A stretch of DNA of 63,561 nt from Candidatus Omnitrophota bacterium (GCA_021735445.1 JAIPHA010000005.1:1-63561), one strand, 5' to 3'; positions 7,423 to 63,253 are shown, numbered from the stretch's first letter. Notes: generated from the letters alone by a model not told the origin. Program-made: numbers and translations.

Positions 7423-7484
7423 AGATGGCAGATTGCAGATGGCAGATAAGTATCTGCTTAACTCCAATCTCTCATCTGTAATCT
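7423..7484. repeat. Heptamer tandem-repeat hairpin (AGATGGC alphabet)
   Basis: AGAT at 7423/7430/7437/7444; ATCT at 7452, 7467, 7474 and 7481. Confidence 0.7.
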
Positions 7485-7504
7485 AATAATTAAGAGCAAT
7501 ATTT

Positions 7505-8659
7505 ATGAAAAAGAAAGTATTAGTTTTTGGTTCAACAGGTTCAGTTGGTAAAAATAGCCTGGAGATAATTGAGCAAAATAAAAACAAGTTTGAAGTAATT
7601 GGGATTTGCGGCAATAAGAATGTAAATCAACTAATTAAACAGGTCAGAAAGTTTAGGCCTAAATACGTTTGCTTGACAGATCAAGATGCCGCCTGCCAGT
7701 TGAAAAAAAGAACGAAAATAAAGTTTAAGTTATTTAGCGGCAAGCAGGGTTTAGGAGATTTTTCTTCTATAAAATCCGATATCTCAATTATGGCTATCTC
7801 CGGCATAGATTGCCTAAGGCCGTTGCTCATAAACATTGAAAAGAGTAAAAGAATTGCGTTAGCTAATAAAGAAGCAATAGTGGTCGGAGCTAAATTCATT
7901 TTTAGAAAAGCAAAAAAATATAAAACAGAAATTATTCCTGTAGATAGCGAGATCAATGCAATATTTCAATTATTAAAGTTAACTAATTTTAAACAAGAGG
8001 ATCTGGAAAAAATTTATATTACAGCTTCAGGCGGTTCACTCCTAAATTATGATAAAAAGTCTTTAAGCAAGGTTAGCGCGGCTGAAGTATTAAACCACCC
8101 TACTTGGAAAATGGGCAAAAGGATAACTATAGACAGCGCTACTTTAGTAAACAAAGGGTTTGAGGTAGTGGAGGCGCATAATTTTTTTAACATTAGTTAT
8201 GAAAAAATTGAGATACTTTTACACAGGCAATCTTTGGTTCACGCGATGGTTAAATTAAACGATCAAACTTGTTTTAGCTGCCTTTATCCTCCGAATATGA
8301 AAAACCCGATATCTTTTGCGCTTTCTTATCCAAAAAGAGTAAAACGAGCTGTATCAGCCAAAGATAAAAAAAAATATAGTTTGTCTTATCAAGCTGTCCC
8401 CTATCGAAAGTTTCCTCTTTTGCGAATAATCCTGGAAGCCGCGCAGCGGGACGATAATTCTTTAGTTGTTTTAAATGCTTGCGATGAAATAGCCGTCGAT
8501 TATTTTCTAAGGAATAAAATAAGTTTTGTTCAAATTGAGAAAATCCTAAAAAAAATTTTTAAAATCTATCCGGCTAAACAGGTAAAATCAATTAAAGATG
8601 TTTATTTTTGGGATAACTGGGCCAGAAAAAAAACAAAAGAAATATTAGGAGAAAAATGA
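7505..8659 (+). CDS. dxr: 1-deoxy-D-xylulose-5-phosphate reductoisomerase
   Basis: 'GSTGSVG', 'LANKE', 'PVDSE' and 'HPTWKMG..ITIDSAT..NKG.E..EA'. Confidence 0.95.
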   Translation: MKKKVLVFGSTGSVGKNSLEIIEQNKNKFEVIGICGNKNVNQLIKQVRKFRPKYVCLTDQDAACQLKKRTKIKFKLFSGKQGLGDFSSIKSDISIMAISGIDCLRPLLINIEKSKRIALANKEAIVVGAKFIFRKAKKYKTEIIPVDSEINAIFQLLKLTNFKQEDLEKIYITASGGSLLNYDKKSLSKVSAAEVLNHPTWKMGKRITIDSATLVNKGFEVVEAHNFFNISYEKIEILLHRQSLVHAMVKLNDQTCFSCLYPPNMKNPISFALSYPKRVKRAVSAKDKKKYSLSYQAVPYRKFPLLRIILEAAQRDDNSLVVLNACDEIAVDYFLRNKISFVQIEKILKKIFKIYPAKQVKSIKDVYFWDNWARKKTKEILGEK

Positions 8660-10041
8660 TACCATTTATTTTTAATTTTTTTATCATAGTAGTTGTTTTT
8701 AGCATTTTAATTATTGTCCATGAATTAGGACATTTTTTTGCAGCTCGCCTGTTTGGAGTTAAGGTAACAGATTTTTCGATTGGTTTTGGGCCGGCTCTGT
8801 TTAAAAAGAAAATAAGGCAAACAAATTTATCAGTTTGCCTGTTTCCTTTAGGCGGCTATATAAAAATGGCCGGCGATAACCGTTCTGAATCCCGGGGGTA
8901 CCGGGATGAATTTTTTTCAAAGTCTCCGGGAATTCGTTCCGGAATTGTTTTTGCCGGGCCGTTATTTAATTATATTTTGGCTTTCTTGTTCTTAATTATT
9001 ATTGCCACTGTTGGTTTTCCTGTCCAGGATACTATAGTGGGAGCGGTAGAGAATGGCTCTCCTGCCCAAGAAGCCGGAATACAGCCCGGAGATAAGTTGG
9101 TTGCCGTTAATGATAAAAAGGTAGAAACCTGGTCTCAACTTAAAAAGGAGATTTATCAGGCGGAAGCTTCGGTTGATATAAGTTTAGAAAGAAATAATGA
9201 AAAAATTCAGCTCAATGTGCCGGTGGTAGAAGAAGAGATGACTGATCAGCTGGGCAGGACTACTAAAGTTTCCCAAATTGGGATTATGCTTTATAAGCCT
9301 GTTATCGGTGAGGTTATCGAACAATATCCGGCTGAAGAAGCCGGGATTAAGAAGGGCGATCAGATATTAGAGGTAGATGGGGAAAAAATAGAAAATTGGC
9401 AAGATTTAGCTGAAAATATCCAAGGTTCTAAAGAAGCTGTAGAGTTGAAAATTAAAAGAGGCAAAGAGGTTTTTTCTTTAAAGGTGCCGGTTAAGAAAGA
9501 AGAGGTGGAGGGGTTTAAATCCGGCCAAGAATATATTTCGGTAATTGGCATTAGGCCGCCTTCAAATGAGAAAATTTTAAAAACAGCTTTTCCCGGCTCT
9601 TTATTAAAAGGGGCGGATATGCTGTTTAAAACTACTTTGTTGAGTGTCAAGGGCCTTTGGTATATGATAACCGATCCATCGATATCTTTTCGCGAATCTA
9701 TAGCCGGGCCTATTTATATTTCATATATTATTTCCAAGACGGCTCAACATGGATTGGTCGCTTTGTTGCAGTTGATTTCTTTATTAAGCATATTTTTATT
9801 TATAATTAATCTTTTGCCAATTCCTGTGTTTGATGGAGGCCACATTGTATTTTTTGGAATTGAGAAGCTAAAAGGAAGCCCTTTAAGCCAAAAAACAGAA
9901 GACGCAGCAACCAGAGTTGGTTTAGCTTTAATTATGGTTTTAATGTTTTTTGTTTTCTATAATGATATCGTCAAAAGAGGGCCTAAAATTTGGAAAGAAA
10001 TTAAAAGTTCGTTTAACCAAGAAAGTAATGAAAAAAACTAA
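8656..10041 (+). CDS. rseP: RIP metalloprotease with two PDZ domains
   Basis: 'HELGH', 'PLGGYIKM' and 'NLLPIPVFDGGH'; two PDZ-like repeats. Confidence 0.95.
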   Translation: MIPFIFNFFIIVVVFSILIIVHELGHFFAARLFGVKVTDFSIGFGPALFKKKIRQTNLSVCLFPLGGYIKMAGDNRSESRGYRDEFFSKSPGIRSGIVFAGPLFNYILAFLFLIIIATVGFPVQDTIVGAVENGSPAQEAGIQPGDKLVAVNDKKVETWSQLKKEIYQAEASVDISLERNNEKIQLNVPVVEEEMTDQLGRTTKVSQIGIMLYKPVIGEVIEQYPAEEAGIKKGDQILEVDGEKIENWQDLAENIQGSKEAVELKIKRGKEVFSLKVPVKKEEVEGFKSGQEYISVIGIRPPSNEKILKTAFPGSLLKGADMLFKTTLLSVKGLWYMITDPSISFRESIAGPIYISYIISKTAQHGLVALLQLISLLSIFLFIINLLPIPVFDGGHIVFFGIEKLKGSPLSQKTEDAATRVGLALIMVLMFFVFYNDIVKRGPKIWKEIKSSFNQESNEKN

Positions 10042-11086
10042 GATTGTTAAAATAGGTAATTTAGAAGTTGGGGGAAACAACCCGATAAGGATAAAGGGGA
10101 TGCTTAAGGCTCCGGCTAAAAAGATAGATTTATTAATAAAGGAAGCTAAGCTGTTAGAAAAAGAAGGGGTTGAAGCTATCAGAGTTGCGGTTCCTGAAGA
10201 AGAAGATGCGAAATTAGCTGGGATTTTAAAAAATTATGTTTCAGTTCCCATTGCTGCCGATATCCATTTTCAGCCAAAATTGGCAGTTTTGGCAATAAAT
10301 AGCGGGTTTGACCAAATTAGGTTAAATCCCTTAAATATTTCTAATAAAAAAGATGTAAAAAGAATTGCGCAATTAGCCGGCCAGAAAGGCATATCAATGC
10401 GAGTGGGGTTGAATTCCGGCGGTTTTCGGCAGCCGGGAATTACCAGGGAAGAGTTAGCGAAACAGATGGTTGATAAGTCTAGCGAGTATATTGAAATCTT
10501 GGAGAGTCAAAATTTTTTTGATATAATGGTTTCATTGAAATGCGCCGATATTGGCACAACAATTACTGCCAACAGAATGTTCCGTAAAAAATACGATTAT
10601 CCTCTCCATGTGGGGATTACAGCTACCGGTTCCTATTTAGAAGGAATAATTAAATCGTCGGTTGGATTAGGAATTATGCTTAATGAAGGCATGGGAGAGA
10701 TAATCAGGGTTTCTTTAACCACAGATTCTTTGGCTGAGGTTAAGGTGGCAAAGTATATCACTCAATCTTTAGGTTTACGAAATTTTGGTCCTGAGATTAT
10801 TTCTTGTCCGACTTGTTCAAGGTGCGAAGTCAATTTGCCTGAAATTGTAGCAAAATTTAAGAAGCGCCTGGAAGATAGAGATTGCAAAGAACCGCTTAAA
10901 ATTGCGCTTATGGGGTGTGTAGTCAATGGCCCCGGAGAAGCTGCTCAGGCGGATTTAGGAGTTGCTTTTGGCAAAACCGAAGGTGTTTTGTTTAAAAAAG
11001 GCAAAGTTTTTAAAAAAACCAAAGATGATAGAGTTATTGATGATTTAGCCAAGGAGTTAGAAAAATATGAACCAAAAAGAGATTAA
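10028..11086 (+). CDS. ispG: HMBPP synthase (GcpE)
   Basis: 'ADIHF', 'RVGLNSG', 'YPLHVGITA', 'ISCPTCSR' and 'MGCVVNGPGEA'. Likely ATG at 10028 overlapping the rseP end. Confidence 0.95.
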   Translation: MKKTKIVKIGNLEVGGNNPIRIKGMLKAPAKKIDLLIKEAKLLEKEGVEAIRVAVPEEEDAKLAGILKNYVSVPIAADIHFQPKLAVLAINSGFDQIRLNPLNISNKKDVKRIAQLAGQKGISMRVGLNSGGFRQPGITREELAKQMVDKSSEYIEILESQNFFDIMVSLKCADIGTTITANRMFRKKYDYPLHVGITATGSYLEGIIKSSVGLGIMLNEGMGEIIRVSLTTDSLAEVKVAKYITQSLGLRNFGPEIISCPTCSRCEVNLPEIVAKFKKRLEDRDCKEPLKIALMGCVVNGPGEAAQADLGVAFGKTEGVLFKKGKVFKKTKDDRVIDDLAKELEKYEPKRD

Positions 11087-12311
11087 AGAGAGTTTAAGAA
11101 AAGATATTAGTTCTTTAGTCGGAGCAAAACAGAATGTCGATAAAGAATATATAACAGAAAGGGCTGTAGTTTTTTTTGAACGCTTGGAAAAAGTCAAGAA
11201 AATAACGGTTGAGGATTCGGTAAGAGATAAAGTAGTTAAATCACTTTGTGACGATTTTTTAGGCTCAGGCCCAATTCAAAGGCTGATGGATGATCCTGAA
11301 ATTACCGAGATTATGGTAAATGGGCCCAAGAGGGTCTATATTGAAAAAGGCGGGAGTAAAGTTTTATCTGGCGTACAGTTTGACGATAAGGCGCATCTGA
11401 GGTATATAGTCGAAAAGATGGTTGCTCCCAGTGGCAGAAGAGTAGATGAGAGTTCACCTTATGTAGATTTTTCCTTAAAAGACGGTTCCCGGGTTAACGT
11501 GATTCTGCCTCCTCTGGCCGTAGATGGGATAACAGTTACTATCCGTAAATTCTTACGTTCTATTGCTAAAGTCGAAGATTTAGTTAAATTAGGGACGGTT
11601 ACCCAGGCTATGGCCGATTTTTTGGTTGCTTGTATAAAAGCCAAGGTGAATATCATGTTTTCCGGCGCTACCGGTTCAGGTAAAACGACAACCCTGGAAG
11701 TTCTTTCTTCTTATATAGATCATTCGGAAAGGATTATTACTATCGAGGATGCGCTTGAGCTTAATTTACGCCAGGATCATGTAATTAGGTTGCTGACCCG
11801 GCTTCCTAATATCGAAGGAAGGGGGAGCGTGCCGCCTCGGGAACTTTTTAGAAATAGTTTACGGATGAGGCCAAATAGGATAATCCTAGGAGAAATCAGA
11901 GGTAAAGAAGCTATGGATTATCTTCAGGCTTTAAATAGCGGGCATCGGGGTTCTTTGTCGGTTATCCATGCATCTGACCCTATTGATGCTTTGACTCGGC
12001 TGGAAACGATGTCTTTGTATGCCGGGTTAAATCTGCCGGCCTGGGCAATAAGAAAGCAAATATCACAGGGCCTGGATTTAATCGTCCAACAAGGGCAACT
12101 TCAGGACGGCACCAGAAAGTTAACCCATATAACCGAAGTCGGCCGTTTAAAAGATAATAATATAGAATTACGGGATATCTTTACTTACGAGATAGAAAAA
12201 TTAACCGATGATTTTAAAGTAAAAGGGAGTTTCCAGGCTAAAAATAAACCAACTTTCTTTGATATTTTTAAGAAGAAAGGGATAAAAATTAACGAAGATA
12301 TTTTTACTTAA
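11067..12311 (+). CDS. cpaF: TadA/CpaF-family secretion/pilus ATPase
   Basis: 'ITEIMVNG', 'RRVDESSPYVD', Walker A GATGSGKTT, 'TIEDALEL', 'LRMRPNRIILGEIRG' and His box 'GHRGS...HA'. Confidence 0.9.
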   Translation: MNQKEIKESLRKDISSLVGAKQNVDKEYITERAVVFFERLEKVKKITVEDSVRDKVVKSLCDDFLGSGPIQRLMDDPEITEIMVNGPKRVYIEKGGSKVLSGVQFDDKAHLRYIVEKMVAPSGRRVDESSPYVDFSLKDGSRVNVILPPLAVDGITVTIRKFLRSIAKVEDLVKLGTVTQAMADFLVACIKAKVNIMFSGATGSGKTTTLEVLSSYIDHSERIITIEDALELNLRQDHVIRLLTRLPNIEGRGSVPPRELFRNSLRMRPNRIILGEIRGKEAMDYLQALNSGHRGSLSVIHASDPIDALTRLETMSLYAGLNLPAWAIRKQISQGLDLIVQQGQLQDGTRKLTHITEVGRLKDNNIELRDIFTYEIEKLTDDFKVKGSFQAKNKPTFFDIFKKKGIKINEDIFT

Positions 12312-12325
12312 TTTCAGGAACAAAT

Positions 12326-13994: not shown

Positions 13995-14035
13995 AAAAAT
14001 GTATTCATCGGATTCGGATTAAAGGAGGTAGGCTC

Positions 14036-15253: not shown

Positions 15254-15297
15254 GGGCAAATAGTGAAACAATTAGTTTTAAAAGGAAGGTATGGATA

Positions 15298-17202: not shown

Positions 17203-17223
17203 CCACATAAAGTAGAAGGAGGA

Positions 17224-17352
17224 TAATCAACGAATGTACAAAGGTAATCTTCGAATTCACTAATCTGTACGAATATACGAATAGTATTATAAATATTCGT
17301 ACATTCGTAATTGATTCGTATATTCGTTGATAGTTATCTGTATTCGTTGATA
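17224..17352. repeat. ACGAAT palindromic element, family B copy 1
   Basis: ATCAACGAAT ... ATTCGTTGAT arms; 17252-17332 matches 54950-55030 at 77/81 nt. Confidence 0.88.
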
Positions 17353-17366
17353 ATTGTCAATTAATT

Positions 17367-20099: not shown

Positions 20100-20121
20100 T
20101 CTCTGTCTCCGGGGCGGGAAT

Positions 20122-20149
20122 TTGTTTATTTTTTAAACTGTGATATAAT
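20122..20149 (+). promoter_or_regulatory. Sigma70-type promoter with extended -10
   Basis: TTGTTT (20122-20127) and TG-A-TATAAT (20141-20149). Confidence 0.5.
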
Positions 20150-20158
20150 TAGCCTACC

Positions 20159-21546
<1,388 letters not shown>

Positions 21547-21550
21547 TAAA

Positions 21551-22246
21551 ATGATTATCGATATTATTACTATATTTCCTGAGATGTTTTATCCTGTTTT
21601 AGGGGAATCGATTATCAAACGGGCCCAGGAGAAAGGATTAGTCAAAATTAATATACATAACTTAAGAGATTATTCCGATGATTCGAATAGAAGAATAGAT
21701 GCGCCTTCTTATGGAGGCGGAGGTATGGTTTTTAAGCCGGGGCCGGTTTTTAAAGCGGTTGAAACTATTTTAGGCCGGGATGCAGATTCTAAAGGTAAAG
21801 GCCCGGGCCGGTTGAGGAAGATTTTATTTACCCCTAAAGGAAAAACCTTAACTCAAAATAAAATAAGTAATTTTTTAGATTTTCAAAGGTTAGTGTTGAT
21901 TGCTCCTCGTTATGAAGGAGTAGATCAAAGAGTGCATGATTTTTTGATTGATGAAGAAATTTCCGTAGGTGATTATGTACTAAGTGGTGGGGAGCTTCCG
22001 GCTATGGTTTTTGCTGATTCTTTAATCCGGCTTATCCCCGGTGTAGTCTCAGACAGAGAGTCTGTAAAACAAGAAAGTTTTCAGAAAAATTGCCTGGATT
22101 TTCCTCATTATACAAGGCCGGAAAATTTTAAAGGATTAAAAGTCCCGGAAGTTTTGCTTTCCGGAAACCATAAAAAAATAGAAGAATGGAGAAAAGCTCA
22201 AGCAAACAAAATTACCAGAAAACAAAGGCCGGATCTATTAAAATAA
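21551..22246 (+). CDS. trmD: tRNA (guanine37-N1)-methyltransferase
   Basis: 'IITIFPEMF', 'RYEGVDQRV', 'SVGDYVLSGGE' and 'PHYTRP'. Confidence 0.97.
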   Translation: MIIDIITIFPEMFYPVLGESIIKRAQEKGLVKINIHNLRDYSDDSNRRIDAPSYGGGGMVFKPGPVFKAVETILGRDADSKGKGPGRLRKILFTPKGKTLTQNKISNFLDFQRLVLIAPRYEGVDQRVHDFLIDEEISVGDYVLSGGELPAMVFADSLIRLIPGVVSDRESVKQESFQKNCLDFPHYTRPENFKGLKVPEVLLSGNHKKIEEWRKAQANKITRKQRPDLLK

Positions 22247-22337
22247 TCAACGAATGTACGAATCAATTACGAATTTACAAATTTATAAAATATTTATTCG
22301 TATATTCGTATAAGATTGGTAAATTCGTAGATGATTA
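22244..22337. repeat. ACGAAT palindromic element, family B copy 2 (inverted relative to copies 1 and 3)
   Basis: Begins with the trmD stop (TAATCAACGAATGTACGAATCAATTACGAAT); its reverse complement aligns with 54941-55030. Confidence 0.85.
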
Positions 22338-22365
22338 TTAATTAACTAAATAATAAGGAGGGAAG

Positions 22366-22716: not shown

Positions 22717-22787
22717 AAGTCACAAGTTTTATGTCACAAGTCACAAGTTACAAGCTAACATGTTACATGTGACTTTATACTTATGAC
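22717..22787. repeat. Heptamer tandem-repeat hairpin (AAGTCAC alphabet)
   Basis: AAGTCAC AAGTTTT ATGTCAC AAGTCAC AAGTTAC (22717-22751); right arm GTTACAT GTGACTT TATACTT ATGAC. Confidence 0.78.
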
Positions 22788-29558: not shown

Positions 29559-32500
29559 ATGGAACATGCCGATTTTGTCCATCTTCACGTTCATACTCAA
29601 TATAGCCTTTTAGATGGAGCTTGTCTTCTTGAGAAGTTAGTTGATAAAGCCGCCCGCCTAAAACTGCCTGCTCTGGCTATAACCGACCATGGCAACATGT
29701 TTGGCGCTATAAAATTCTACAACCTTTGCGTAAAAAAAGGAATAAAACCGATTTTGGGTTGTGAGTTTTATCTTGCTCCTGGCTCCCGGCTTGATAAAGC
29801 CAATAAGAGCCAAAATTACCATCTTGTTCTTTTAGCTAAAAATAATACCGGATACGAAAATTTAATAAAACTGGTGAGCTTGGCGCATTTAGAAGGGTTT
29901 TACTATAAGCCAAGGATTGACAAAGAACTTCTTTGCGACCATCATCAAGGCCTTATCGCTTCCAGCGCCTGCCTTAAGGGAGAGATTCCTTCTTTGATTT
30001 TAGCGGGAGACATTCCCGGTGCTTATAAAGCGGCCGATGAGTATCTCAATATATTTGGCAAAGGCAATTTTTACCTAGAGGTGATGAAAAATGGCTTGGA
30101 TGACCAAGATAAAGTAAATTCTTATTTGATTAAAATTTCTCAAGAGCTGGGAATTCCTTTATTAGCCACAAATGATATCCATTATTTGGATAAGGATCAG
30201 GCTTTTGCGCACCAGGCTTTATTGGCTATTCAAACCCAAACTACTCTTTCTGACCCGAACCGGTTTCGTTTTGGCAGTGAAAGCTTTTATTTCAAGAGCC
30301 CGGAAGAAATGAAGAAAGATTTTTACCAAATTCCGGAAGCGCTTCGGAACACCCTTGAAGTTATGCAAAAATGCAACCTTACTTTGGATTTTTCTAAAAT
30401 ACATTTGCCTCATTTCCCTTTACCTGATGGCCAAAACGATCAAGATTTTCTTAAAGAATTAGCCAAGCGAAATTTCGAAGAAAAATACTCAAAAGAAAAT
30501 TTAAAAGCAAAAAAAAGATTAGAGCATGAATTGGGTGTTATTAACCAAACAGGATTTTCCAGCTATTTTTTAATTGTCTGGGATTTGATTAAGTTTGCTA
30601 AAGAAAACGATATCCCGGTTGGCCCGGGCAGAGGCAGCGCCGCCGGCAGTATTGTAAGTTATTTGCTCAATATAACCGATATTGACCCTTTAGCTTATGA
30701 CCTTTTGTTTGAAAGGTTCCTTAACCCGGCCCGGATTTCCATGCCTGATATCGATATAGATTTTTGTTATGAGAAAAGGTCCTCAATCTTAGAATATGTG
30801 GGCCAGCGTTATGGAAGGGAAAATGTTGCTCAAATCATTACTTTTGGAACCATGCTAGCCAGGGCGGTCGTGCGCGATGTAGGCAGAGTTATGGATTTTA
30901 CTTATTCTGAGGTTGATAAAATCGCGAAAATGATTCCTACTTCGGTAGGCCATACCGTAACTCTTAAAGAAGCTATCTCTCTCAATTCTGACCTTGAAAA
31001 TATTTATAAATCCGACAGCAGAATAAAAAAGTTAATTGATGTAGCTATGCAGTTGGAAGGAGTTTCCCGGCATGCTTCTACTCACGCGGCCGGGGTGGTA
31101 GTTTCAGACAGGCCCCTTTTAGAGAGGATTCCTCTCAGCAGGGGTTCTGAAGGGGAGATCGTAACCGGATACGATATGGATTCTTTGGAAAAAACCGGTA
31201 TGCTTAAAATGGATTTTCTCGGCCTAAAGACCTTAACTGTAATAGATGAAACCGTTAAGATTATAAAACGTACGCGGCAGAAGGATATTGATATTACAGG
31301 GATCCCTATTTCTGATAAAAAGACTTTCTCTCTTTTGAGTAAAGCTGAAACCATGGGGGTTTTCCAGCTTGAATCCGGGGGGATGAGAGAGATTTTAGAG
31401 AAGATGAAACCCTCGACCTTTGAAGACATTATTGCCGTGCTGGCCCTTTACCGGCCCGGGCCTTTGGGAAGCGGCATGGTCGATGATTTTATTCAGCGTA
31501 AACAAGGCAAAAAAAAGGTTCACTACCCTCATCCGAAATTAGAACAAATTTTGGAAAAAACTTATGGGATCATAGTTTACCAGGAACAGATTATGCAAAT
31601 AGTTTCAGAGTTAGCTGGTTTTGACATGGCCAGGGCCGATACCTTAAGAAAAGCTATCGGAAAAAAAATACCGGAGATAATTCAACAACAAAAACAATTG
31701 TTTTTACGGGGTTGTAAAAATAACAAGATACCGGAAAAAGCAGCTAATCAGATATTTGATTTAATTGACTACTTTTCCGGGTACGGCTTCAACAAATGTG
31801 TAGTGGGGGATACTGAAATTATTGATGCTGATACAGGTGGTTTAGTTAAGGTAGAGGATATTTATAGATATAGGTCGACGAAAACTACTTTAGGATGCAC
31901 TGATCAGTTGAAGATAAACAAGGTAAATATAGAAAATGTAGTTTGTAACGGGGTTAAGCCTGTTTATAAGCTGAAAACTAATCTTGGCAGAGAAATAGAA
32001 GTTACTTCTAACCATCCTTTTCTTACTATGGAAGGCTGGAAAAAGCTGGAAAATCTATCTAGAGGAGAAAGGATAGCTCTTGCCAGAAAGCATCCAATAG
32101 CTGCAAAAAATTCCTGCGCTAGTTATAAATTAATAAGTTTAGCTGGAATTATCGCAGAGGGCAATACGAATCATTCGGCCGGAGTATACTTTTATGCTGC
32201 CAATAAAGAATATTGCGATGATTTTGTGAAAAATGCACAACTGTTTCCACAAACTATTCCGGCACTAAGAAGCAGAAGATCGATATATGAAGTTTATTGT
32301 GGGACTGGAAAAAATACGAGATTTTTTAGGGGCCAGGTTCCTTGGAACAAGAAAGGAGCCGTTTCAACAACATCTTTTGTCCGTTCTGGATTTAGGGTTT
32401 GGTTGGAGGAACTAAATCTTGTTGACAAGAATGCATCTGAGAAGTTTATTCCTGATTTTATTTTTAGTTTGAAACCGGATGATTTAGCGTTATTTCTTGG

Positions 32501-34310
32501 CAGGTTGTGGTCAGGAGACGGTTTTGTCTATACGAAAAGAAATTCTTTTCCATTTTACGCGACCTCTTCTGTTAAGCTTGCGCAGCAACTTCAGGAATTA
32601 TTGTTAAGATTCGGAATTATTTCGAAAATCCATAAGAAACATTTTAAATATAGATATAAACAAAAGATAAATAACAGGGTAGGCTATGTCCTTATACTGC
32701 AAGGCCGGGAAAGTATTGATAGTTTTCTTAACAATTTAGCTCGTTATATTATCGGCCAAGATAAACAATTAGATAAGTTGAGAAAATATTATCGCTCAGT
32801 TGCATCTAATCGGGAAAGCAAAGATATTATCCCTCAGCAAATAAAATTTTGTGTGCAAAAGCTGAGAGTAAAAAATAATATTCCATGGAGAAATTTAGAA
32901 TCTGATTCTTGTGTTTGTATGAGAAGCTTTACTGGTAATATTAAACAACACAAACAAGGATTTAGACGTAATACTATAAAAAAACTTGCTGATTATTTTA
33001 AAGATTCAGAGTTAATGAAATACGCTCAATCTGATATTTATTGGGATAGAGTGATTTCAATAGAATATCTAGGAGATAGGCTGACATATGATTTGCAAAT
33101 CGAAAAATATCATAATTTTCTTGCCAATGGGATCGTCGTTCACAATTCTCATTCTACGGCTTATGCTCTTATCTCTTACCGGACCGCCTACCTGAAAGCT
33201 CATTTTGGAGTTGAGTTCATTGCGGCTCTTTTAACTAGCGAAAGAAATAATACTGATAAAGTTGTTGAATATATTAATGAGGCAAATCGAATGAAGATAA
33301 AAGTGCTCCCTCCTGATATTAATACAAGTTATGCTAATTTTACTGTAACCGACGATAACAATATCCGGTTTGGTTTAATTGCGATAAAAAATGTAGGAGG
33401 AGCGGCTTTAGAGAGTATAATTTCTGCGCGAAAGGAGAAAAAATTCGAAAGCATCTTTGATTTTTCCGATCGAATTGATTCCCGGGCTGTCAATAAAAAA
33501 GTTATAGAAAGTTTAATAAAATCGGGGGCCATGGATTCTTTAGGCCTAAAACGGGCCCAGATGATGCTCTTGTTGGATAAGCTTTTGGCAAGGCAGGCCA
33601 GGAAAAAGAAAAACGCTTCTCAGTTAACTTTATTTTCGAAAGAGGAAGAACAGGAAAAGATACCCGAAGTTTCGGAATGGCCTTTGCTGCAGATTCTCAA
33701 TTTTGAAAAAACCCTTTTAGGCGTTTATCTAAGCGGCCACCCGCTCTATTGTTATTCCGGAACGATAAAATTCTTGAAACGGGAATTAATCAGTTCGTTA
33801 AACGAAAGCATCCGGAATAGGGAAGTTCTTGTTTGCGGAGTTATCGAAAAGGTCAAGGCGGTTACCACGCGAAGGCGAAATGAACGGATGGCTATAATCA
33901 GGATCGAAGATGAAACTGCCAGCGTTGAAGCTTTTGTTTTTCCGCGCCTTTTTGCCGAAACTCAATTATTTATAGCCAAGAAAAAAATTATTGTTTTAAG
34001 AGGAAAACTGGAAACCAAAGACAGGGTCCCAAAAATTTTAGCCTCGGAAATATTTCCCATTGAGCAATTGCAGCAAAAAGTAAAAGAAGTAAACATTAAG
34101 GTTGATAGGAAAACTATCCCTTTAAAGGAGCTTAAATCAATAGTAATGAGCAATCAGGGGGATAAACCGGTTTTCTTTTCTTTTCGGGATGACCGGATGG
34201 GCAACACCAAAGTGAAAGTAGGGGATAAGTTCTCTATTTCGTTAGAGCCCAGTGCTTTAGGAAAAATAAGCTCTTTGGTGGGGGAAACAAACTTGTCCTT
34301 GACACTCTAA
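29559..34310 (+). CDS. dnaE: DNA polymerase III alpha subunit (intein-containing precursor)
   Basis: PHP 'HLHVHTQYS', 'GPGRGSAAGS', 'MPDIDIDF', 'KMDFLGL', and FNK|SH split by an intein; C-terminal OB domain. Confidence 0.98.
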   Translation: MEHADFVHLHVHTQYSLLDGACLLEKLVDKAARLKLPALAITDHGNMFGAIKFYNLCVKKGIKPILGCEFYLAPGSRLDKANKSQNYHLVLLAKNNTGYENLIKLVSLAHLEGFYYKPRIDKELLCDHHQGLIASSACLKGEIPSLILAGDIPGAYKAADEYLNIFGKGNFYLEVMKNGLDDQDKVNSYLIKISQELGIPLLATNDIHYLDKDQAFAHQALLAIQTQTTLSDPNRFRFGSESFYFKSPEEMKKDFYQIPEALRNTLEVMQKCNLTLDFSKIHLPHFPLPDGQNDQDFLKELAKRNFEEKYSKENLKAKKRLEHELGVINQTGFSSYFLIVWDLIKFAKENDIPVGPGRGSAAGSIVSYLLNITDIDPLAYDLLFERFLNPARISMPDIDIDFCYEKRSSILEYVGQRYGRENVAQIITFGTMLARAVVRDVGRVMDFTYSEVDKIAKMIPTSVGHTVTLKEAISLNSDLENIYKSDSRIKKLIDVAMQLEGVSRHASTHAAGVVVSDRPLLERIPLSRGSEGEIVTGYDMDSLEKTGMLKMDFLGLKTLTVIDETVKIIKRTRQKDIDITGIPISDKKTFSLLSKAETMGVFQLESGGMREILEKMKPSTFEDIIAVLALYRPGPLGSGMVDDFIQRKQGKKKVHYPHPKLEQILEKTYGIIVYQEQIMQIVSELAGFDMARADTLRKAIGKKIPEIIQQQKQLFLRGCKNNKIPEKAANQIFDLIDYFSGYGFNKCVVGDTEIIDADTGGLVKVEDIYRYRSTKTTLGCTDQLKINKVNIENVVCNGVKPVYKLKTNLGREIEVTSNHPFLTMEGWKKLENLSRGERIALARKHPIAAKNSCASYKLISLAGIIAEGNTNHSAGVYFYAANKEYCDDFVKNAQLFPQTIPALRSRRSIYEVYCGTGKNTRFFRGQVPWNKKGAVSTTSFVRSGFRVWLEELNLVDKNASEKFIPDFIFSLKPDDLALFLGRLWSGDGFVYTKRNSFPFYATSSVKLAQQLQELLLRFGIISKIHKKHFKYRYKQKINNRVGYVLILQGRESIDSFLNNLARYIIGQDKQLDKLRKYYRSVASNRESKDIIPQQIKFCVQKLRVKNNIPWRNLESDSCVCMRSFTGNIKQHKQGFRRNTIKKLADYFKDSELMKYAQSDIYWDRVISIEYLGDRLTYDLQIEKYHNFLANGIVVHNSHSTAYALISYRTAYLKAHFGVEFIAALLTSERNNTDKVVEYINEANRMKIKVLPPDINTSYANFTVTDDNNIRFGLIAIKNVGGAALESIISARKEKKFESIFDFSDRIDSRAVNKKVIESLIKSGAMDSLGLKRAQMMLLLDKLLARQARKKKNASQLTLFSKEEEQEKIPEVSEWPLLQILNFEKTLLGVYLSGHPLYCYSGTIKFLKRELISSLNESIRNREVLVCGVIEKVKAVTTRRRNERMAIIRIEDETASVEAFVFPRLFAETQLFIAKKKIIVLRGKLETKDRVPKILASEIFPIEQLQQKVKEVNIKVDRKTIPLKELKSIVMSNQGDKPVFFSFRDDRMGNTKVKVGDKFSISLEPSALGKISSLVGETNLSLTL
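31797..33146 (+). mobile_element. Intein (450 aa) with LAGLIDADG homing endonuclease, inserted in the DnaE FNK/SH motif
   Basis: Block A 'CVVGDTEI' (Cys747), block B 'TSNHPF', LAGLIDADG-like 'LAGIIAEG' and 'FLGRLWSGDG', block F 'YDLQIEKYHNFLANG', terminal HN followed by +1 Ser. Confidence 0.95.
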
Positions 34311-37316: not shown

Positions 37317-37357
37317 AGAGAGCAGTTAAAAAAATAATGGGGTAAAATGAAAGCAGG

Positions 37358-37492
37358 AAATAATCAAGATACAAGAAACAATAACCAAATAATAACCAAT
37401 AACCAAATTCAAATAACCAAACAAAACATTTATTTTTTGATTATTGGTTGTTGGTGATTGTTTGTATCTTGTAACTTGGTGATTGGTTATTT
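37358..37492. repeat. Tandem-repeat hairpin (AATAACC/GGTTATT alphabet)
   Basis: Left arm AATAACC units plus CAAGATACAAG; right arm TGGTGAT/TGGTTAT units plus GTATCTTG. Confidence 0.82.
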
Positions 37493-37527
37493 CGAGTTAT
37501 TAACGTATTATACGAGGGAGGTTGGAA

Positions 37528-43035: not shown

Positions 43036-43042
43036 AAAAGAG

Positions 43043-43187
43043 AGGGGACGTTTCCCTCTTATATAAGTCATTGATAGCAAGTATCTTATGAAGGCGTGTT
43101 TTCCAGAGTAAAAAGGAAAAATTGCGGAAAACGTTGAGTTGTAAGTTGTTATTAATCAAAAAGTTATAAACGAGGGAAACGTCTCCT
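43043..43187. repeat. MITE/REP-like element, family A copy 2 (inverted relative to copy 1)
   Basis: AGGGGACGTTTCCCTC (43043-43058) and GAGGGAAACGTCTCCT (43172-43187). Confidence 0.85.
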
Positions 43188-43202
43188 CTTTGAAGGGTTA
43201 GT

Positions 43203-45348: not shown

Positions 45349-45363
45349 ACCCGCCTTTCTTTT

Positions 45364-45435
45364 TTAGTGAGTGGTTAATTAGTGAGTGGCGATTATTTAT
45401 TGACCATTTAACAAATTAACCAATTAACCAGTTAA
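45364..45435. repeat. Octamer tandem-repeat hairpin (TTAACCAA alphabet)
   Basis: TTGACCAT TTAACAAA TTAACCAA TTAACCAG (45400-45431) opposite TAGTGAG/TGGTTAAT units. Confidence 0.7.
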
Positions 45436-45448
45436 AAATGGGAGTTTT

Positions 45449-56305: not shown

Positions 56306-56335
56306 TCATTTTTTTAATTTAAGGGTTAGGGGGAT

Positions 56336-56842: not shown

Positions 56843-56844
56843 TT

Positions 56845-57309: not shown

Positions 57310-57387
57310 GAGTTAAGTGGAGGTAAATCCAAAACGCCTGCTAATTTCTCACAATACTAACCCACTCTTTTAGATCATTACTTATCT

Positions 57388-58815: not shown

Positions 58816-59693
58816 AATTAGAAAATATAACTGTAAATTTATCCAAAAAAATAAAAAGTATTCAATGCATGGTGGTTTCGTCTGATTACTTTTTGCAGCT
58901 GAATCAAGAAAAAAGAAGAGCCGGAAAGTTAAAGAAGCTAAAACCCGGCCAAGCTGTTTTAAGAAAAGATGATTTTTTTAACAGCGAATATGTCATTTTT
59001 ATTAATTTAAGCTGCGTTAAGAAGCAAGAAGTTATCCGGAAAGCTTTAGATAGCTGCTTTAGGCGGGTTAAAAGATACAATATTGAATCCTTGGGCTTTT
59101 TGACTGATAGTTTCAAAAATAGCGTTGATTTTGCTGTCTTTTCCAAAATAGCTGCTCAGGAGATATTTCGCCAGGCAAAGATTAATGATAAGAAAAGATT
59201 AAAAAAAATATTATTAATAACAGAGAGCGGCTTAACCGAGAATATATTAAGCAGGAACGTAATCGGTTATCTCAACCATATAAAAATAAACAGAGGCCCT
59301 TTTCTTACCGTAGACGGCCTGGTGCAATATAAAAACGGTATTGTTTTGGTAGAAAGGAGAAATCCTCCCCTGGGCCTGGCTTTGCCGGGCGGTTTTGTTG
59401 ATTATGGAGAAAAAGTAGAAGACGCGGTTGCCCGGGAAGTCAAGGAAGAAACGAACCTTGATTTTATAAATATAAAACAATTTAAAGTTTATTCCGATAA
59501 GTTTAGGGATCCCCGCTTCCATACGGTTTCGGTGGTTTTTACCGGAAAAGGCAGAGGGAAGCTTAAAGCAGCTTCCGATGCGAAAAAAGCTTTAGTTCTC
59601 GAAATTGTTAAAGGTAAAAGCCGCTTGGCAAAATTACCGGATAACATTGCTTTTGACCACAAAAAGGTAATCAAAGACTTTTTAAATGGTTGA
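58812..59693 (+). CDS. Degenerate macro-like domain fused to a Nudix hydrolase (ADP-ribose pyrophosphatase-like)
   Basis: Nudix box 'GFVDYGEKVEDAVAREVKEETNL', 'RDPRFH' and 'AFDH'. The N-terminal macro assignment is by secondary-structure-like pattern only. Confidence 0.7.
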   Translation: MKLENITVNLSKKIKSIQCMVVSSDYFLQLNQEKRRAGKLKKLKPGQAVLRKDDFFNSEYVIFINLSCVKKQEVIRKALDSCFRRVKRYNIESLGFLTDSFKNSVDFAVFSKIAAQEIFRQAKINDKKRLKKILLITESGLTENILSRNVIGYLNHIKINRGPFLTVDGLVQYKNGIVLVERRNPPLGLALPGGFVDYGEKVEDAVAREVKEETNLDFINIKQFKVYSDKFRDPRFHTVSVVFTGKGRGKLKAASDAKKALVLEIVKGKSRLAKLPDNIAFDHKKVIKDFLNG

Positions 59694-59701
59694 GGTTGGC
59701 T

Positions 59702-61732
59702 ATGGAAAAGATACCCATACGTTATATTAAAGGGGTAGGGCCTCATAAAGAAGAGGTATTCAATAGAAAGGCCCAGGTTTATAGCCTAAAGGACCTTTTT
59801 TATTATTTCCCTTTCCGTTATGAAGACCGGACTAATTTTGTAAATATCCAGGATTTAAAAAAAAATGAAAATGCGGTAATTCAGGGCGAAGTTTTAGCCA
59901 GAAACTTAAAGAAATTCCCTCACTTTATCCGCTCTGTAAAAATAAAAAGTATCTTGGAAGTTATTCTGGGAGACCAAACCGCTAAAATTAGCTGTAAGTG
60001 GTTCAACCAGCCTTATCTTGTTGATTCCCTTAAAGTCGGCCAAAAAATAATTGTTTATGGAAAAGTTACTTATTATCGAGGCAAACTGCAAATGGTTGCC
60101 CCTAAATTTGAGCAAAGCGACAAAGCGCAAAGTTTAGATATCGGTAAAATTACGCCTATTTACAGGTTGCCGGCTGAATTCAGCCAAAGGTTTATGAGAA
60201 AAACAATATTTTTAGCTTTAAAAAAATACAGCTCCGGCCTTGTTGACCCGATTCCTTTTGAGGTCAGAAAGAGGCAGAATATTTCTAATATTGCCAAAAG
60301 CTTTCAGCAGATACATTTTCCTGCTTGCCTAGAAGATGCGGATTTAGCCAGGCAGAGATTTATTTTCGAAGAGTTATTTATTTCTCAGGTAAGGGTCTAT
60401 CTACGCAAAGCTAAACACCGTTTTCAACAAGGTCCCTGTTTGGAATTTAATAAAAAAATAGTACAACAAATAGAGCAAACATTGCTTTTTTGCCTAACCC
60501 GGGCTCAAAGAGGCGCCGTGCAGGAAATTTTAGCGGATCTGGAAAAGAAATATCCAATGCGCCGGCTTTTACAGGGAGATGTAGGCAGCGGGAAAACCGC
60601 TGTGGCTATTTTTCCCATAATTTTGTCAGCACTATCTTCCCAGCAGGTAGCGTTTATGGTACCAACAGAGTTTTTAGCTTATCAGCATAAAAAGACAATA
60701 GATAGCTTATTAGAAAAATCAGCCCCGCCCTTGTCCGGCTTAAAAGGCAAAATAGATTTATTAACCTCTTCTTCTTCGCTAAAAGAAAAAAACCTCGTTC
60801 TAAAAAGGTTAACGAGGGGTGATTCTTTAATTGTGGTAGGAACCCATTCTTTAATCCAGAAGAAAATAAAATTTAAAAAGTTAGGGATGGTAGTGATAGA
60901 TGAACAACATAAATTCGGAGCGGCTCAAAGGGCCCTTTTGCCAAAAAAAAGCAAAACTCCGCCTAATTGTTTAGTGATGAGCGCCACCCCTATTCCCCGC
61001 AGTTTAGCTCTTTCTCTTTATGGAGATTTGGATTTATCAACGATTGGCCAGTTACCTCCGGGGCGGGTTGCGCCGGAGACGATTTTAGTTAAAGATAAAA
61101 ATAGAGAACGGGTCTATGATTTGATTGAAGAAAAAATAAAAGAAGGCAGGCAGGCCTACATAGTTTATCCGGTTATAGATCAAAATGATAAATTAGAAGT
61201 TAAATCATTAAACCAGATGGCGCAATTGGCCAAAAAAAGGTTTTCCGGGTTTTCTTTAGGGGTATTTCATGGGCGGTTAGAAAACCAAGAAAAAATAAGA
61301 GTGGTTAATAAGTTCAATCACGGTAAAATTGATATTCTTGTATCTACTAACCTGGTAGAGGTCGGCCTTGATATTAAAAATGCCACGCTTATGGTAGTTG
61401 AAAGCCCGGAAAAGTTTGGTTTATCTCAATTGCATCAGCTGCGCGGCCGGATTAGAAGGTCCCGGCGCAAATCCACTTTTGTTTTAATTTATAATGAAAA
61501 TATTTCCCAAGAAGCCCGAAAGAGGCTGATAACTATCAAAAAAGAAAGTGATGGATTCCAGATAGCCGAAATGGACTTAAAGTTGCGCGGGCCGGGAGAT
61601 TTTTTTGGCCAGCTTCAACATGGCTTGCCGGATTTAAGAATTGCAAATCCCGCCAGAGATTTAAAAATTTTAAAAGAGGCGCGGATTTTAGCCAGAGAGG
61701 CGGTTAAAAAAGTAAAAAAATGCAAATTTTAG
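59702..61732 (+). CDS. recG: ATP-dependent DNA helicase RecG
   Basis: 'IKGVGP', 'PFRYEDR', 'QGDVGSGKT', 'DEQH', 'MSATPIPR', 'QLRGRI' and 'RGPGDFFG'. Confidence 0.97.
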   Translation: MEKIPIRYIKGVGPHKEEVFNRKAQVYSLKDLFYYFPFRYEDRTNFVNIQDLKKNENAVIQGEVLARNLKKFPHFIRSVKIKSILEVILGDQTAKISCKWFNQPYLVDSLKVGQKIIVYGKVTYYRGKLQMVAPKFEQSDKAQSLDIGKITPIYRLPAEFSQRFMRKTIFLALKKYSSGLVDPIPFEVRKRQNISNIAKSFQQIHFPACLEDADLARQRFIFEELFISQVRVYLRKAKHRFQQGPCLEFNKKIVQQIEQTLLFCLTRAQRGAVQEILADLEKKYPMRRLLQGDVGSGKTAVAIFPIILSALSSQQVAFMVPTEFLAYQHKKTIDSLLEKSAPPLSGLKGKIDLLTSSSSLKEKNLVLKRLTRGDSLIVVGTHSLIQKKIKFKKLGMVVIDEQHKFGAAQRALLPKKSKTPPNCLVMSATPIPRSLALSLYGDLDLSTIGQLPPGRVAPETILVKDKNRERVYDLIEEKIKEGRQAYIVYPVIDQNDKLEVKSLNQMAQLAKKRFSGFSLGVFHGRLENQEKIRVVNKFNHGKIDILVSTNLVEVGLDIKNATLMVVESPEKFGLSQLHQLRGRIRRSRRKSTFVLIYNENISQEARKRLITIKKESDGFQIAEMDLKLRGPGDFFGQLQHGLPDLRIANPARDLKILKEARILAREAVKKVKKCKF

Positions 61733-62265
61733 GCGGAAAATTAAAAGGGAGAAAAATTGAAGCTCCTTTGGGGATAAGGCCGGTTTCTCAACGGATCAAA
61801 AAAAGCTGTTTTGATATAATAACCGAATTGGTTAGAGGCAAAACCGTGTTAGACCTTTATGCCGGCAGCGGCGCATTAGGGATAGAAGCTTTAGCCCAGG
61901 GAGCCGCTCAAGCTGTTTTTGTTGACAAAAGCAAAAGGAGCTTAAGGGCTGTGGGCAATAACCTTAATGGTTTAAAATTAAAGGATCAGGCTAAGGTGTA
62001 TTATAAAGAAAGTTCTTTGGCTATAAAATATTTTTACCGGAAAGAATATTTTTTTGATATTATTTTTCTGGACCCCCCTTATTCTCGGGGGCTGCTTACA
62101 AAGAGCTTGCAACTATTAGAAAGTTATGATATATTAGCCCGTCCTGGATATTTAGTAGGGTTTTGTTCTAAAAAAGATAATTACAGTAAAGAATACAGCA
62201 AGTTTTCTTTAATTTTAGATAGAGGATATGGCCAATCCAGGCTGATTATATACAGAAAAAAATAG
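61720..62265 (+). CDS. rsmD: 16S rRNA (guanine966-N2)-methyltransferase
   Basis: 'ILGGKLKGR', 'LDLYAGSGALGIEAL' and 'DPPY'. Confidence 0.93.
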   Translation: MQILGGKLKGRKIEAPLGIRPVSQRIKKSCFDIITELVRGKTVLDLYAGSGALGIEALAQGAAQAVFVDKSKRSLRAVGNNLNGLKLKDQAKVYYKESSLAIKYFYRKEYFFDIIFLDPPYSRGLLTKSLQLLESYDILARPGYLVGFCSKKDNYSKEYSKFSLILDRGYGQSRLIIYRKK

Positions 62266-62329
62266 AACCCCTGTTTTTTTCTAAAAATTCAATGAAACCT
62301 AGATTGGCAAAAAAGGTAAATTAAAAAAA

Positions 62330-62833
62330 GTGATGCAGAAAGCAATTTATCCTGGTACCTTTGACCCTATTACTAATGGACACCTTGATATAGTAAACAG
62401 GGCTAATCTTTTATTTGACCAACTAATAGTGGCTGTAGTTAAGAGCCCTCCCAAAGCCTGCCTTTTTCCTTACAATGAACGCCTTGATTTAGCTAAAAAA
62501 GTGACTAAAAATATAAAAGGCGTGGAGGTTCTAGGATTTGAAGGTTTAGTGATAGATTTTGCGCGCCAAAACAAAGCTGATGTAATCATTAGAGGATTGA
62601 GGACAATGTCAGATTTTGAATATGAATTCAAGATGGCTTTAACCAATAAAAGTTTAGCTCCAGCTATAGAAACCTTTTTTTTAATGACTCAGCCTCAATA
62701 TTCTTTCATTTCTTCGCATTTAATAAAAGAAGTGGCTTTATTGGGGGGAGACCTAAATAAATTTTTACCTGAGGCAGTATTTGACGCGGTAAACAAGAAA
62801 GTGGATGAAGGTTGCGGTTGGAAAAATAACTGA
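62330..62833 (+). CDS. coaD: Phosphopantetheine adenylyltransferase
   Basis: 'IYPGTFDPITNGH', 'RGLR...DFEYE' and 'ISS'. Confidence 0.97.
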   Translation: MMQKAIYPGTFDPITNGHLDIVNRANLLFDQLIVAVVKSPPKACLFPYNERLDLAKKVTKNIKGVEVLGFEGLVIDFARQNKADVIIRGLRTMSDFEYEFKMALTNKSLAPAIETFFLMTQPQYSFISSHLIKEVALLGGDLNKFLPEAVFDAVNKKVDEGCGWKNN

Positions 62834-63242
62834 ACAGGGGCTAAGGCTGGATGAAAAAATTCCGGCTGCTTCCTTAAGCTTAGACGGATTTGATTTAAAA
62901 TTTGTTGATTGCCTTAAGGTAGAGGCGGTTTTTACCAAGATTTATAGTGAGGTAATCAGTAAAGTTGAGATTACAGCTTATTGCCAAATTAGTTGTTCGC
63001 GCTGTTTAGTTGAGGTCGGCCAGATTAAAAAATATGGATCCCAAAAAACCTATCAACTAAATAAATTGGGTAATTTTTTAGATATTAATGATCAGGTCAG
63101 AGAAGAGATTTTACTGAATTTTTCTCTTAAAGTGCTTTGCTCTCCTGGCTGTCAAGGGCTGTGTTCCTCTTGTGGCAGGAACCTTAATTGGGGAGAATGC
63201 AATTGCTCGAAAAGTCAACAGGTTAACAAATTAACCAATTAA
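62805..63242 (+). CDS. DUF177/YceD family protein
   Basis: 'CSRCL' and 'LCSPGCQGLCSSCGRNLN..C.C'; position before rpmF. Confidence 0.9.
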   Translation: MKVAVGKITEQGLRLDEKIPAASLSLDGFDLKFVDCLKVEAVFTKIYSEVISKVEITAYCQISCSRCLVEVGQIKKYGSQKTYQLNKLGNFLDINDQVREEILLNFSLKVLCSPGCQGLCSSCGRNLNWGECNCSKSQQVNKLTN

Positions 63243-63253
63243 CAAATTAATTA
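63214..63253 (+). repeat. Octamer tandem repeat (TTAACCAA alphabet) containing the yceD stop
   Basis: GTCAACAG GTTAACAA ATTAACCA ATTAACAA ATTAATTA. Confidence 0.7.

Follow-up and report, generated by a model that had tools for sequence, protein, structure and literature searches.

We investigated a 63,561-nt stretch of DNA (hereafter, the window) from a Candidatus Omnitrophota bacterium, in which hairpin-forming arrays of short repeated units lie in the gaps between consecutive genes. The metagenome-assembled genome of this organism (G000) measures 1.17 Mb at 37% GC and includes the window as contig C2, the + strand of which carries every gene. No tRNA genes were found in the window, and a search of it against Rfam at gathering thresholds returned no match. 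A preliminary description of the sequence had named the genes at the junctions concerned, and NCBIfam assignments agreed with it, identifying cdsA-dxr, infB-trpS, tgt-trmD, trmD-rplS, rplS-rnhB and guaB3-guaA as well as guaA-dnaE, aspS-LysM, purB-purL, purD-purE and rpiB-glyA. Folding was scored as a z value against mononucleotide shuffles, with dinucleotide shuffles for the sites at 21487, 52840 and 63214, and short tandem repeats were located with Tandem Repeats Finder (TRF). This analysis revealed ten junctions with fold-backs far above shuffled sequence (z -2.6 to -7.2) and two others occupied by one-armed arrays, none of the elements containing an open reading frame (ORF). They are listed below in order of position.

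7421..7479 (fold site 7416), + strand: cdsA-dxr fold-back, periodic, -24.6 kcal/mol, z = -3.2, TRF period 7; arms of (G)GCAGAT/AGATGGC 7-mers, a family found also at C16:14531 and C16:18065

17223..17354 (fold site 17203), + strand: infB-trpS ACGAAT(NN) element, -45.6 kcal/mol, z = -5.9; arms long or nested; member of a multicopy family, with 94% identity to the copy at 54.9 kb, and present also in G006

21487..21547, + strand: tgt-trmD fold-back of the AAGTC/GGACNNN family, -20.6 kcal/mol, z = -5.3, TRF periods 7 and 14; left arm sharing sequence with the tgt 3' end, stop codon included; relatives carry AAGTC/GGACNNN or other families here

22242..22339 (fold site 22247), + strand: trmD-rplS ACGAAT element, z = -5.2; inverted relative to the 54.9-kb copy (best match on the minus strand)

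22719..22787 (fold site 22714), + strand: rplS-rnhB fold-back with AAGTCAC 7-mer arms, z = -2.6, TRF period 7; termini those of a cassette with a four-helix-bundle gene on contig C15

27782..27874 (fold site 27787), + strand: guaB3-guaA fold-back with GGATTAA 7-mer arms, z = -4.9; reaching from stop codon to start codon

29422..29544 (fold site 29417), + strand: guaA-dnaE fold-back with a CACAGAT (CRCRRAK) core, z = -7.2; two CRCRRAK motifs and two complements, the only window element with that core

37334..37508 (fold site 37317), + strand: aspS-LysM fold-back with GATACAA/AATAACC 7-mer arms, z = -4.5; family recurring at C1:52486 and C34:49563

45355..45444 (fold site 45349), + strand: purB-purL fold-back with GGTGAGT/TTAACCAA arms, z = -2.8

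52840..52887, + strand: purD-purE one-armed TAAGTCC array of 6.9 copies (TRF, 97% match), z = +1.1; overlapping the purD stop codon

54931..55036 (fold site 54926), + strand: rpiB-glyA ACGAAT element, z = -3.5; conserved core 54944-55030

63214..63250, + strand: one-armed TTAACAAA/TTAACCAA array, z = +0.3, TRF period 8; equivalent to the 45.3-kb family's right arm and placed where an unassigned ORF ends

The preliminary description had ascribed to such sites units with a strict 7- or 8-nt period and, in most cases, an inverted partner arm. Ten fold-backs bear this out, whereas the arrays at 52840 and 63214 are one-armed and do not fold. The strict period likewise holds for the tandem tracts of the genome as a whole, where it is 7, but not for every element: the ACACAGAT units of guaA-dnaE are spaced about 23 nt apart and hence have no 8-nt period, and the elements at 17203 and 37317 show only loose periodicity. 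Two periodic AT-rich hairpins, at C1:49667-49813 and at the aspS-lysM junction of the related genome G002 (L186), have a GC-rich hairpin nested at the apex. The apex, which is also the seat of cargo genes, may be a preferred landing site for further small elements.

We then considered the periodicity of the arrays across the source genome, defining a strict tandem tract as at least 85% match over 24 nt. Period 7 accounted for 21 intergenic and 5 coding tracts and period 8 for one, while periods 4-6 and 9-12 gave no intergenic tract anywhere in the genome. Tract density was 0.26 per kb in intergenic and 0.0046 per kb in coding sequence, a difference of approximately 57-fold. Since the tracts are nearly all of period 7 and so strongly concentrated between genes, generic slippage does not explain them. 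Pooled autocorrelation of the arms had its maxima at lags 7 (0.375) and 14 (0.362), against a level of about 0.26. Folds with z < -3 were present in 62 of 370 intergenic regions of 40-350 nt. Because a strict detector of paired arrays returned just 10 pairs and missed degenerate arms, hairpins were instead classified by folding, and 18 of 48 long hairpins were clearly 7/8-periodic. The unit families AGATNGN, AAGTCAC, AGTCCNN, ACGAATNN and GATACAA/AATAACC each recur at several loci; the genome also has other, non-periodic repeat families. The stems consist of blocks of 6-7 bp split by regular mismatches, which is the origin of the 7/8-nt period. Intrinsic terminators were considered and rejected: inspection of the sequences revealed a GC-rich stem followed by a T-run in none of the window hairpins, whose long, AT-rich stems lead into the start region of the following gene. 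The earlier statement that neither random slippage nor classical terminators would give such elements agrees with this.

The source genome encodes one TIGR02436/PF05635 four-helix-bundle protein and one TIGR04256/PF13366 GxxExxY protein, and both genes lie between inverted arms. The four-helix-bundle gene (C15:6314-6634, within a cassette at C15:6243-6730) is flanked by six copies of (A/T)GTCACA on the left and eight of TGTGACN on the right; its unit family is that of four empty hairpins with a GTTAAC apex, and the gene sits exactly at the apex. The GxxExxY gene (C36:589-930) is flanked by ACACAGA-type arms. Just upstream of the latter cassette, at C36:150-480, we also noted two direct copies of a module of approximately 150 nt behind a tRNA gene, each copy beginning with the tRNA 3' end (GACTCTCCCCCGCGGCA...). 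In a comparison of 41 genomes of the family, four-helix-bundle genes were found in 36 and GxxExxY genes in 16. Arms were tested on a sample of 28 and 30 of these genes, respectively, with the 95th percentile of mismatched-flank controls as the cut-off, and inverted arms above control bordered 24 of the 28 four-helix-bundle genes and 19 of the 30 GxxExxY genes. The statement in the preliminary description that such arms flank genes of these two kinds thus holds both in this genome and across the family. It had treated the arms as a single class, however, and here it has to be revised, as there are two. Flanks of GxxExxY genes carry a CRCRRAK core upstream and its complement downstream, with a mean of 2.70 per locus as compared with 0.50 for the reverse arrangement, 0.10 for four-helix-bundle flanks and 0.39 for background. 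Arms of four-helix-bundle genes are mostly strict 7-mers that vary freely, with a unit particular to each locus, GGATTAA (L119) and TTAACCAA (L144) among them.

These comparisons supplied filled counterparts for several unit families of the window. The AAGTCAC family (22714) corresponds to the C15 cassette, the TTAACCAA family (45349 and 63214) to a four-helix-bundle gene in G003 (L144), the GGATTAA family (27787) to a four-helix-bundle gene at L119, and the CACAGAT core (29417) to the GxxExxY gene on C36; no filled counterpart of the AGATGGC or GATACAA families was found. TAAGCT arms are shared by three cassettes from as many genera, which lie at non-homologous junctions and carry cargo proteins that are 68-81% identical, indicating that whole cassettes move. 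The possibility that each four-helix-bundle protein reads its own arms was rejected, since the Spearman correlation of arm with cargo similarity was approximately 0; four-helix-bundle proteins of 71% identity are flanked by unrelated heptamers, an observation that speaks against a simple sequence-specific code. The match of the four-helix-bundle cargo is strong to PF05635 and weak to a bAvd-like model, and the solved relatives 2GSC and 2RLD were deposited with five chains each. A sequence search for a solved GxxExxY structure found none.

To follow individual junctions, we compared the source genome with six congeners (G001-G006, of which G006 is the closest relative). Synteny within the genus is perfect, but the content of ten junctions varied among the seven genomes, the hairpin being present, absent or replaced, as listed here for eight of them.

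guaB3-guaA: GGATTAA in G000; TTAACCAA, ACACAGAT and AGTCC in relatives (L003, L004, L005)

guaA-dnaE: ACACAGAT in G000; TTAACCAA and GACGA-type units in relatives

rplS-rnhB: AAGTCAC in G000; TTAACCAA in G006, G003 and G001; GACGA-type units also found; no element in G004

rpiB-glyA: ACGAAT in G000, in G001 (97% identical) and in G003; precisely absent from G006, G005 and G004

trmD-rplS: ACGAAT in G000 and G003; reduced to a remnant of its right end in G006 and G001; G005 has a GC-rich hairpin instead, and G004 and G002 lack any element

aspS-lysM: GATACAA/AATAACC in G000; a different hairpin in G002; a 36-39-nt spacer without hairpin in four relatives

purB-purL: hairpin in G000 and G006; G003 has just the right arm, and three genomes have nothing here

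purD-purE: one-armed in G000 with 6.9 copies, as against about four in G001 and G004 and 2 in G006; G003 instead has a full hairpin of another kind

Junctions that hold cargo behave in the same manner. The junction of the C15 cassette is occupied in G003 by another cassette, with TTAACCAA arms, and the two cargo proteins are 38% identical over 79 residues, as compared with 76-79% for the products of the flanking genes. A further junction is filled in G004 and keeps only the matching left arm in G000 (contig C4), so that one-armed arrays are best read as cassette scars; by analogy, we read the purD-purE array as a cassette remnant. Taken together, these observations show that within the genus one and the same junction can gain a cassette, lose it, hold it in truncated form or exchange it for another unit family, that whole cassettes with arms and cargo occur at unrelated junctions in different genera, and that cassettes and their empty derivatives are multicopy and occupy the stop-to-start gap of co-directional genes. 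Few features of these housekeeping operons, in which synteny is otherwise perfect, change as fast. The spacer between g19104 and tgt (window 20100-20378) also differs in length, with 291 nt here against 33-50 nt in three relatives (G006, G005 and G001); in two of the three it carries a one-armed array of AACCTCA type, and in G002 an ACGAAT element lies there. The extra sequence in G000 may encode a small hydrophobic peptide.

The ACGAAT family is multicopy, with 7-46 raw matches per genome on both strands in all seven genus genomes. Its copies are 81-97% identical, have non-periodic details in common and end in ATCA(A/T)CGAAT...ATTCGTTGAT. No direct repeat indicative of a target-site duplication was present in the flanks of 29 copies, and the empty elements lie in both orientations relative to host genes (16:11). 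Cargo genes, on the other hand, read in the sense of both flanking genes in 40 cases and against both in no case, which indicates that the orientation constraint follows the cargo rather than the insertion. A terminal TAG...CTA motif common to the elements was considered and dropped: of 46 elements, 16 had TAG close to the left end and 6 had CTA, the reverse control, in that place.

Several features bear on whether the elements act at the level of RNA or of DNA. Stems begin a median of 5 nt past the stop codon and end a median of 14 nt ahead of the next start codon, and 17 of 21 hairpins fold better on the sense strand (p = 0.014), with 57 G·U pairs against 9 A·C mismatches. Shine-Dalgarno-like motifs are present downstream of 43% of the hairpins, as compared with 41% genome-wide. 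Across 27 ACGAAT copies the hexamers are nearly invariant, while the spacer base at alignment columns 32 and 61 is never Watson-Crick paired, the combinations being A·C, A·A and T·T; changes are found on either side, but the position stays unpaired. This suggests that the periodic mismatch is maintained, with selection for an interrupted rather than a perfect helix.

Based on these data, we consider it likely that the junction elements of the window are copies of mobile hairpin cassettes, the full hairpins being cargo-less and the one-armed arrays half-deleted. In its complete form, such a cassette has tandem 7-8-nt units as its left arm, a right arm complementary to these and, at the apex between the two, a small gene for either a four-helix-bundle protein (PF05635) or a PD-(D/E)XK-like GxxExxY protein (PF13366). 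The preliminary description had proposed that the hairpins are empty cassettes, which is largely supported, and had suggested among other possibilities that the mRNA hairpin is cut, which finds no support, or is bound by an oligomeric protein, which is speculative. Alleles that are filled in one genome and remnant in another, filled and differently filled, or hairpin-bearing and empty fit the empty-cassette proposal; the junctions of the window itself, which are cargo-free in all six congeners, do not. It had also set the proposal against arrays at the frequency of slippage, junctions that never carry cargo and arms without compensatory pairing. The first two do not describe what we found, while compensatory changes are indeed lacking in the one family tested.

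The absence of cargo at the window's own junctions is one of several points that weigh against the cassette interpretation. The ACGAAT family was never found with cargo, and one four-helix-bundle gene and one GxxExxY gene stand against more than 20 empty hairpins of at least eight unit families. No enzyme for cassette mobility was identified. The 40:0 orientation of cargo genes could reflect the replication strand, given long co-directional gene blocks, and C-to-T mutation bias on the G-rich strand alone could produce the sense-strand bias in folding. Moreover, compensatory double changes were found at 0 of 21 predicted pairs in the 27 ACGAAT copies, and the support for pairing consists of between-family complementarity and the strand bias.

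Four other explanations were weighed, and all are less well supported. Hairpins selected by the host as RNA devices, whether as mRNA stabilisers or for translational coupling, would be conserved in presence while turning over in sequence, with mobility secondary. Fold-backs occupy guaB3-guaA and guaA-dnaE in 4 of 4 genomes examined, with a different family in each, and occupancy is 5 of 5 genomes at infB-trpS and 7 of 7 at tgt-trmD. Such constancy at four junctions fits a host function, which is compatible with mobility, and the better folding of the sense strand and the run of the stem from stop codon to start codon point the same way. However, rpiB-glyA, aspS-lysM, purB-purL, trmD-rplS and rplS-rnhB are empty in close relatives, one and the same element is found in either orientation, one-armed remnants persist, compensatory changes are nil and Shine-Dalgarno-like motifs are equally frequent after hairpins and genome-wide, all of which makes this explanation unlikely. 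Somewhat less probable still is that the elements resemble repetitive extragenic palindromes (REPs) or their paired form (REPINs), moved in trans by Y1 transposases of the IS200 or REP-associated tyrosine transposase (RAYT) type, with cargo capture at the apices incidental. REPs, the bacterial interspersed mosaic elements (BIMEs) that they build and the REPIN-RAYT systems are multicopy extragenic palindromes that lie within operons after stop codons, lack target-site duplications and occur in genomes encoding Y1 transposases. The elements described here are likewise multicopy and intra-operonic, PF01797 Y1 genes are present in 7 of 7 genus genomes (2-14 each), the lack of target-site duplications at ACGAAT copies is what single-strand transposition by HUH enzymes predicts, empty elements lie in both orientations, and GC-rich hairpins are nested in two periodic apices (C1:49667 and G002 aspS-lysM). 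Nevertheless, the Y1 genes here are bordered by GC-rich inverted repeats of their own (CTGTCCACACCCGGTGTGGACAG, AAAAGGGGTCACACCTA) rather than by periodic arms, the unit families have no terminal tetranucleotide in common and no conserved end of the GTAG type, the arms are tandem arrays of 25-85 nt as opposed to REP palindromes of 20-40 nt, and two specific cargo families, PF05635 and PF13366, are bracketed far above control. Three Y1 genes of 220-240 aa (C36:37804-38499, C10:124121-124783 and C28:24916-25635) each lie within their own GC-rich inverted repeat, and isolated hairpins made of such repeats (e.g. CTGTCCACACCCGGTGTGGACAG) stand at C6:48651 and C13:41719, a typical REP-RAYT arrangement.

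A known system with closely similar layout is the ORF-bearing intervening sequence (IVS) of 23S rRNA in Coxiella burnetii and Leptospira, in which a stem carries a PF05635 ORF in its loop and RNase III cuts in mid-stem (PMC4990558). By extension, RNase III could cut the stem in the transcript here, releasing the cargo RNA and splitting the operon mRNA. The likeness is considerable: terminal inverted repeats form a long stem (in ten window elements, and as cassette arms above controls), a PF05635 ORF ('S23p'/23S_rRNA_IVP) lies in the loop (in the C15 cassette, though not in the window elements), the element sits in a transcribed non-coding spot where its stem rejoins the flanks, ORF-less forms exist, and a selfish or mobile origin is suspected but was never demonstrated. 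Unlike the rRNA IVS, the present elements are found in operons, between protein-coding genes, rather than within a 23S rRNA helix, their arms are arrays of 7-8-nt units with a periodic mismatch, and a second cargo family, PF13366, has the same layout. The excising enzyme is also undetectable in this lineage. Canonical RNase III (TIGR02191) was not found in the source genome, the six-frame translation of which lacks the PROSITE-type signature, and it was not detectable in 37 of the 41 family genomes, including three single-contig assemblies; RNase III-like hits in the remaining four were partial (model positions 1 to approximately 140, N-terminal) and below the curated cut-off. The 23S gene of the source genome (C8:591-3557) measures 2,967 nt against a model of 2,925 positions and thus has no large insert, and a mismatch is conserved in every 7-8 bp of the stem. 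Since canonical RNase III is missing, cutting of the stem by it probably does not occur in this lineage, and we regard processing of the IVS type as improbable. Finally, the arrays might be independent products of replication slippage in AT-rich spacers, with no tie to cassettes. Arrays do slip, as the TAAGTCC copy number of 6.9 in G000 and 2 in its close relative G006 illustrates, but slippage as the sole explanation is already contradicted by the confinement to period 7 with no tract at periods 4-6, by loops and irregularities that copies at separate junctions have in common, by termini that agree with those of filled cassettes and by the rule that arms have complementary partners, so that we give it very little credence.

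If the elements are indeed mobile cassettes, the following sequence of events may be envisaged. Fold-back of the transcript would bring the stop codon of the upstream gene next to the start codon of the downstream one, and insertion would consequently be tolerated; operon expression and translational coupling would survive, much as the stem of an rRNA IVS joins the rRNA halves. Cargo would be expressed by read-through, which would explain its invariable sense orientation. Arm sequence would drift, with slippage within an arm and correction templated by the fold-back keeping period and complementarity. Movement would leave no target-site duplication and would take place in both orientations. 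For the GxxExxY class, the most concrete candidate for a mobility factor is the nuclease-like GxxExxY protein itself, acting on the CRCRRAK arms.

Intergenic heptamers have been encountered before in other bacteria. The short tandemly repeated repetitive (STRR) sequences of cyanobacteria are intergenic heptamer arrays. Paired intergenic heptamers have been described as inverted GGGAATC pairs in Xanthomonas (PMC4692102) and as heptanucleotide sites in Geobacter metallireducens (PMC2700814), and TAACTGA repeats in Beggiatoaceae, cyanobacteria and Bacteroidetes (PMC4679880); they were read as G-quadruplex formers, binding sites for IHF/HU or translational regulators (PMC4692102, PMC2700814, PMC4679880). 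Like the elements of the window, these are intergenic tandem 7-mers, often in convergent pairs capable of forming stem-loops, mostly between co-directional genes and nearer the end of the upstream gene, and variable in length and sequence among close relatives; unlike them, the Omnitrophota arrays include many unit sequences side by side in one genome. None of the three papers ties heptamers to cargo genes, filled and empty alleles or mobility (PMC4692102, PMC2700814, PMC4679880). The four-helix-bundle cargo weakly resembles the Avd accessory protein of diversity-generating retroelements (bAvd; PMC10053308), but no reverse transcriptase or template/variable repeat adjoins the cassettes examined, where the gene stands alone between the arms. 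A literature search by cargo family names returned no paper connecting either family to such repeats. Correia elements of Neisseria have fixed 26-bp terminal inverted repeats, create a TA duplication and are processed by RNase III. They and other miniature transposable elements with inverted repeats (MITEs) that fold in mRNA are, like the junction elements, non-autonomous inverted repeats that are co-transcribed with their neighbors and polymorphic in presence (between strains, for Correia elements); the arms here differ from those of Correia elements in being variable and periodic, there is no duplication, and no RNase III was detected. A classical MITE of the DDE type was rejected, given the absence of target-site duplications in the flanks of the 29 ACGAAT copies. 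We propose a cassette class with heptamer arms and PF05635 or PF13366 cargo, which is absent from the papers searched.

Two observations in the window lie apart from the cassettes. A separate family of elements of approximately 150-170 nt, bounded by GGGGACGTTTCCCTC and its complement, is represented at 3216-3400 and 43036-43195 (z = -4.3 and -7.7), with further copies at C34:44160, C10:17830, C23:22690, C6:3014 and C3:51958. The elements contain a conserved inner TTTTCCGC...GCGGAAAA hairpin, are non-periodic, lack an Rfam match and look MITE-like or like a structured RNA. In addition, the dnaE gene (29559-34310; 1,583 aa) holds an intein, with N- and C-terminal splicing domains matching approximately residues 747-1197.

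A wider interpretation, which we put forward tentatively as somewhat less probable than its negation, is that tandem-unit hairpin cassettes constitute an undescribed class of transposase-less mobile elements that occupies operon stop-to-start gaps in many phyla, with the rRNA IVS as a special case. Geometry would then matter more than sequence, in the form of a period of 7 nt in which each unit keeps one mismatch, and arms would be renewed through slippage and fold-back copying. The GxxExxY protein, with its CRCRRAK arms, and a pentameric four-helix-bundle protein would be factors by which the cassettes propagate or maintain themselves, the arrays of heptamers encountered in Xanthomonas, Geobacter, cyanobacteria and Beggiatoaceae would be cassette footprints, and lineages without RNase III, this one included, could accumulate cassettes at many housekeeping junctions.

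On the cassette interpretation, the hairpins at these junctions would tie the 'heptamer repeats' of bacteria to rRNA intervening sequences, the origin of which has been debated since about 1990. If the interpretation is true, PF05635 and PF13366, two very large families of obscure function, would together with heptamer repeats and the rRNA IVS represent one kind of element. The cassettes may influence how operons are expressed, where assemblies break and how strains are typed. With RNase III apparently absent, one may ask how this lineage matures its rRNA, and the architecture is uncoupled from the sole mechanism hitherto attached to such stems.

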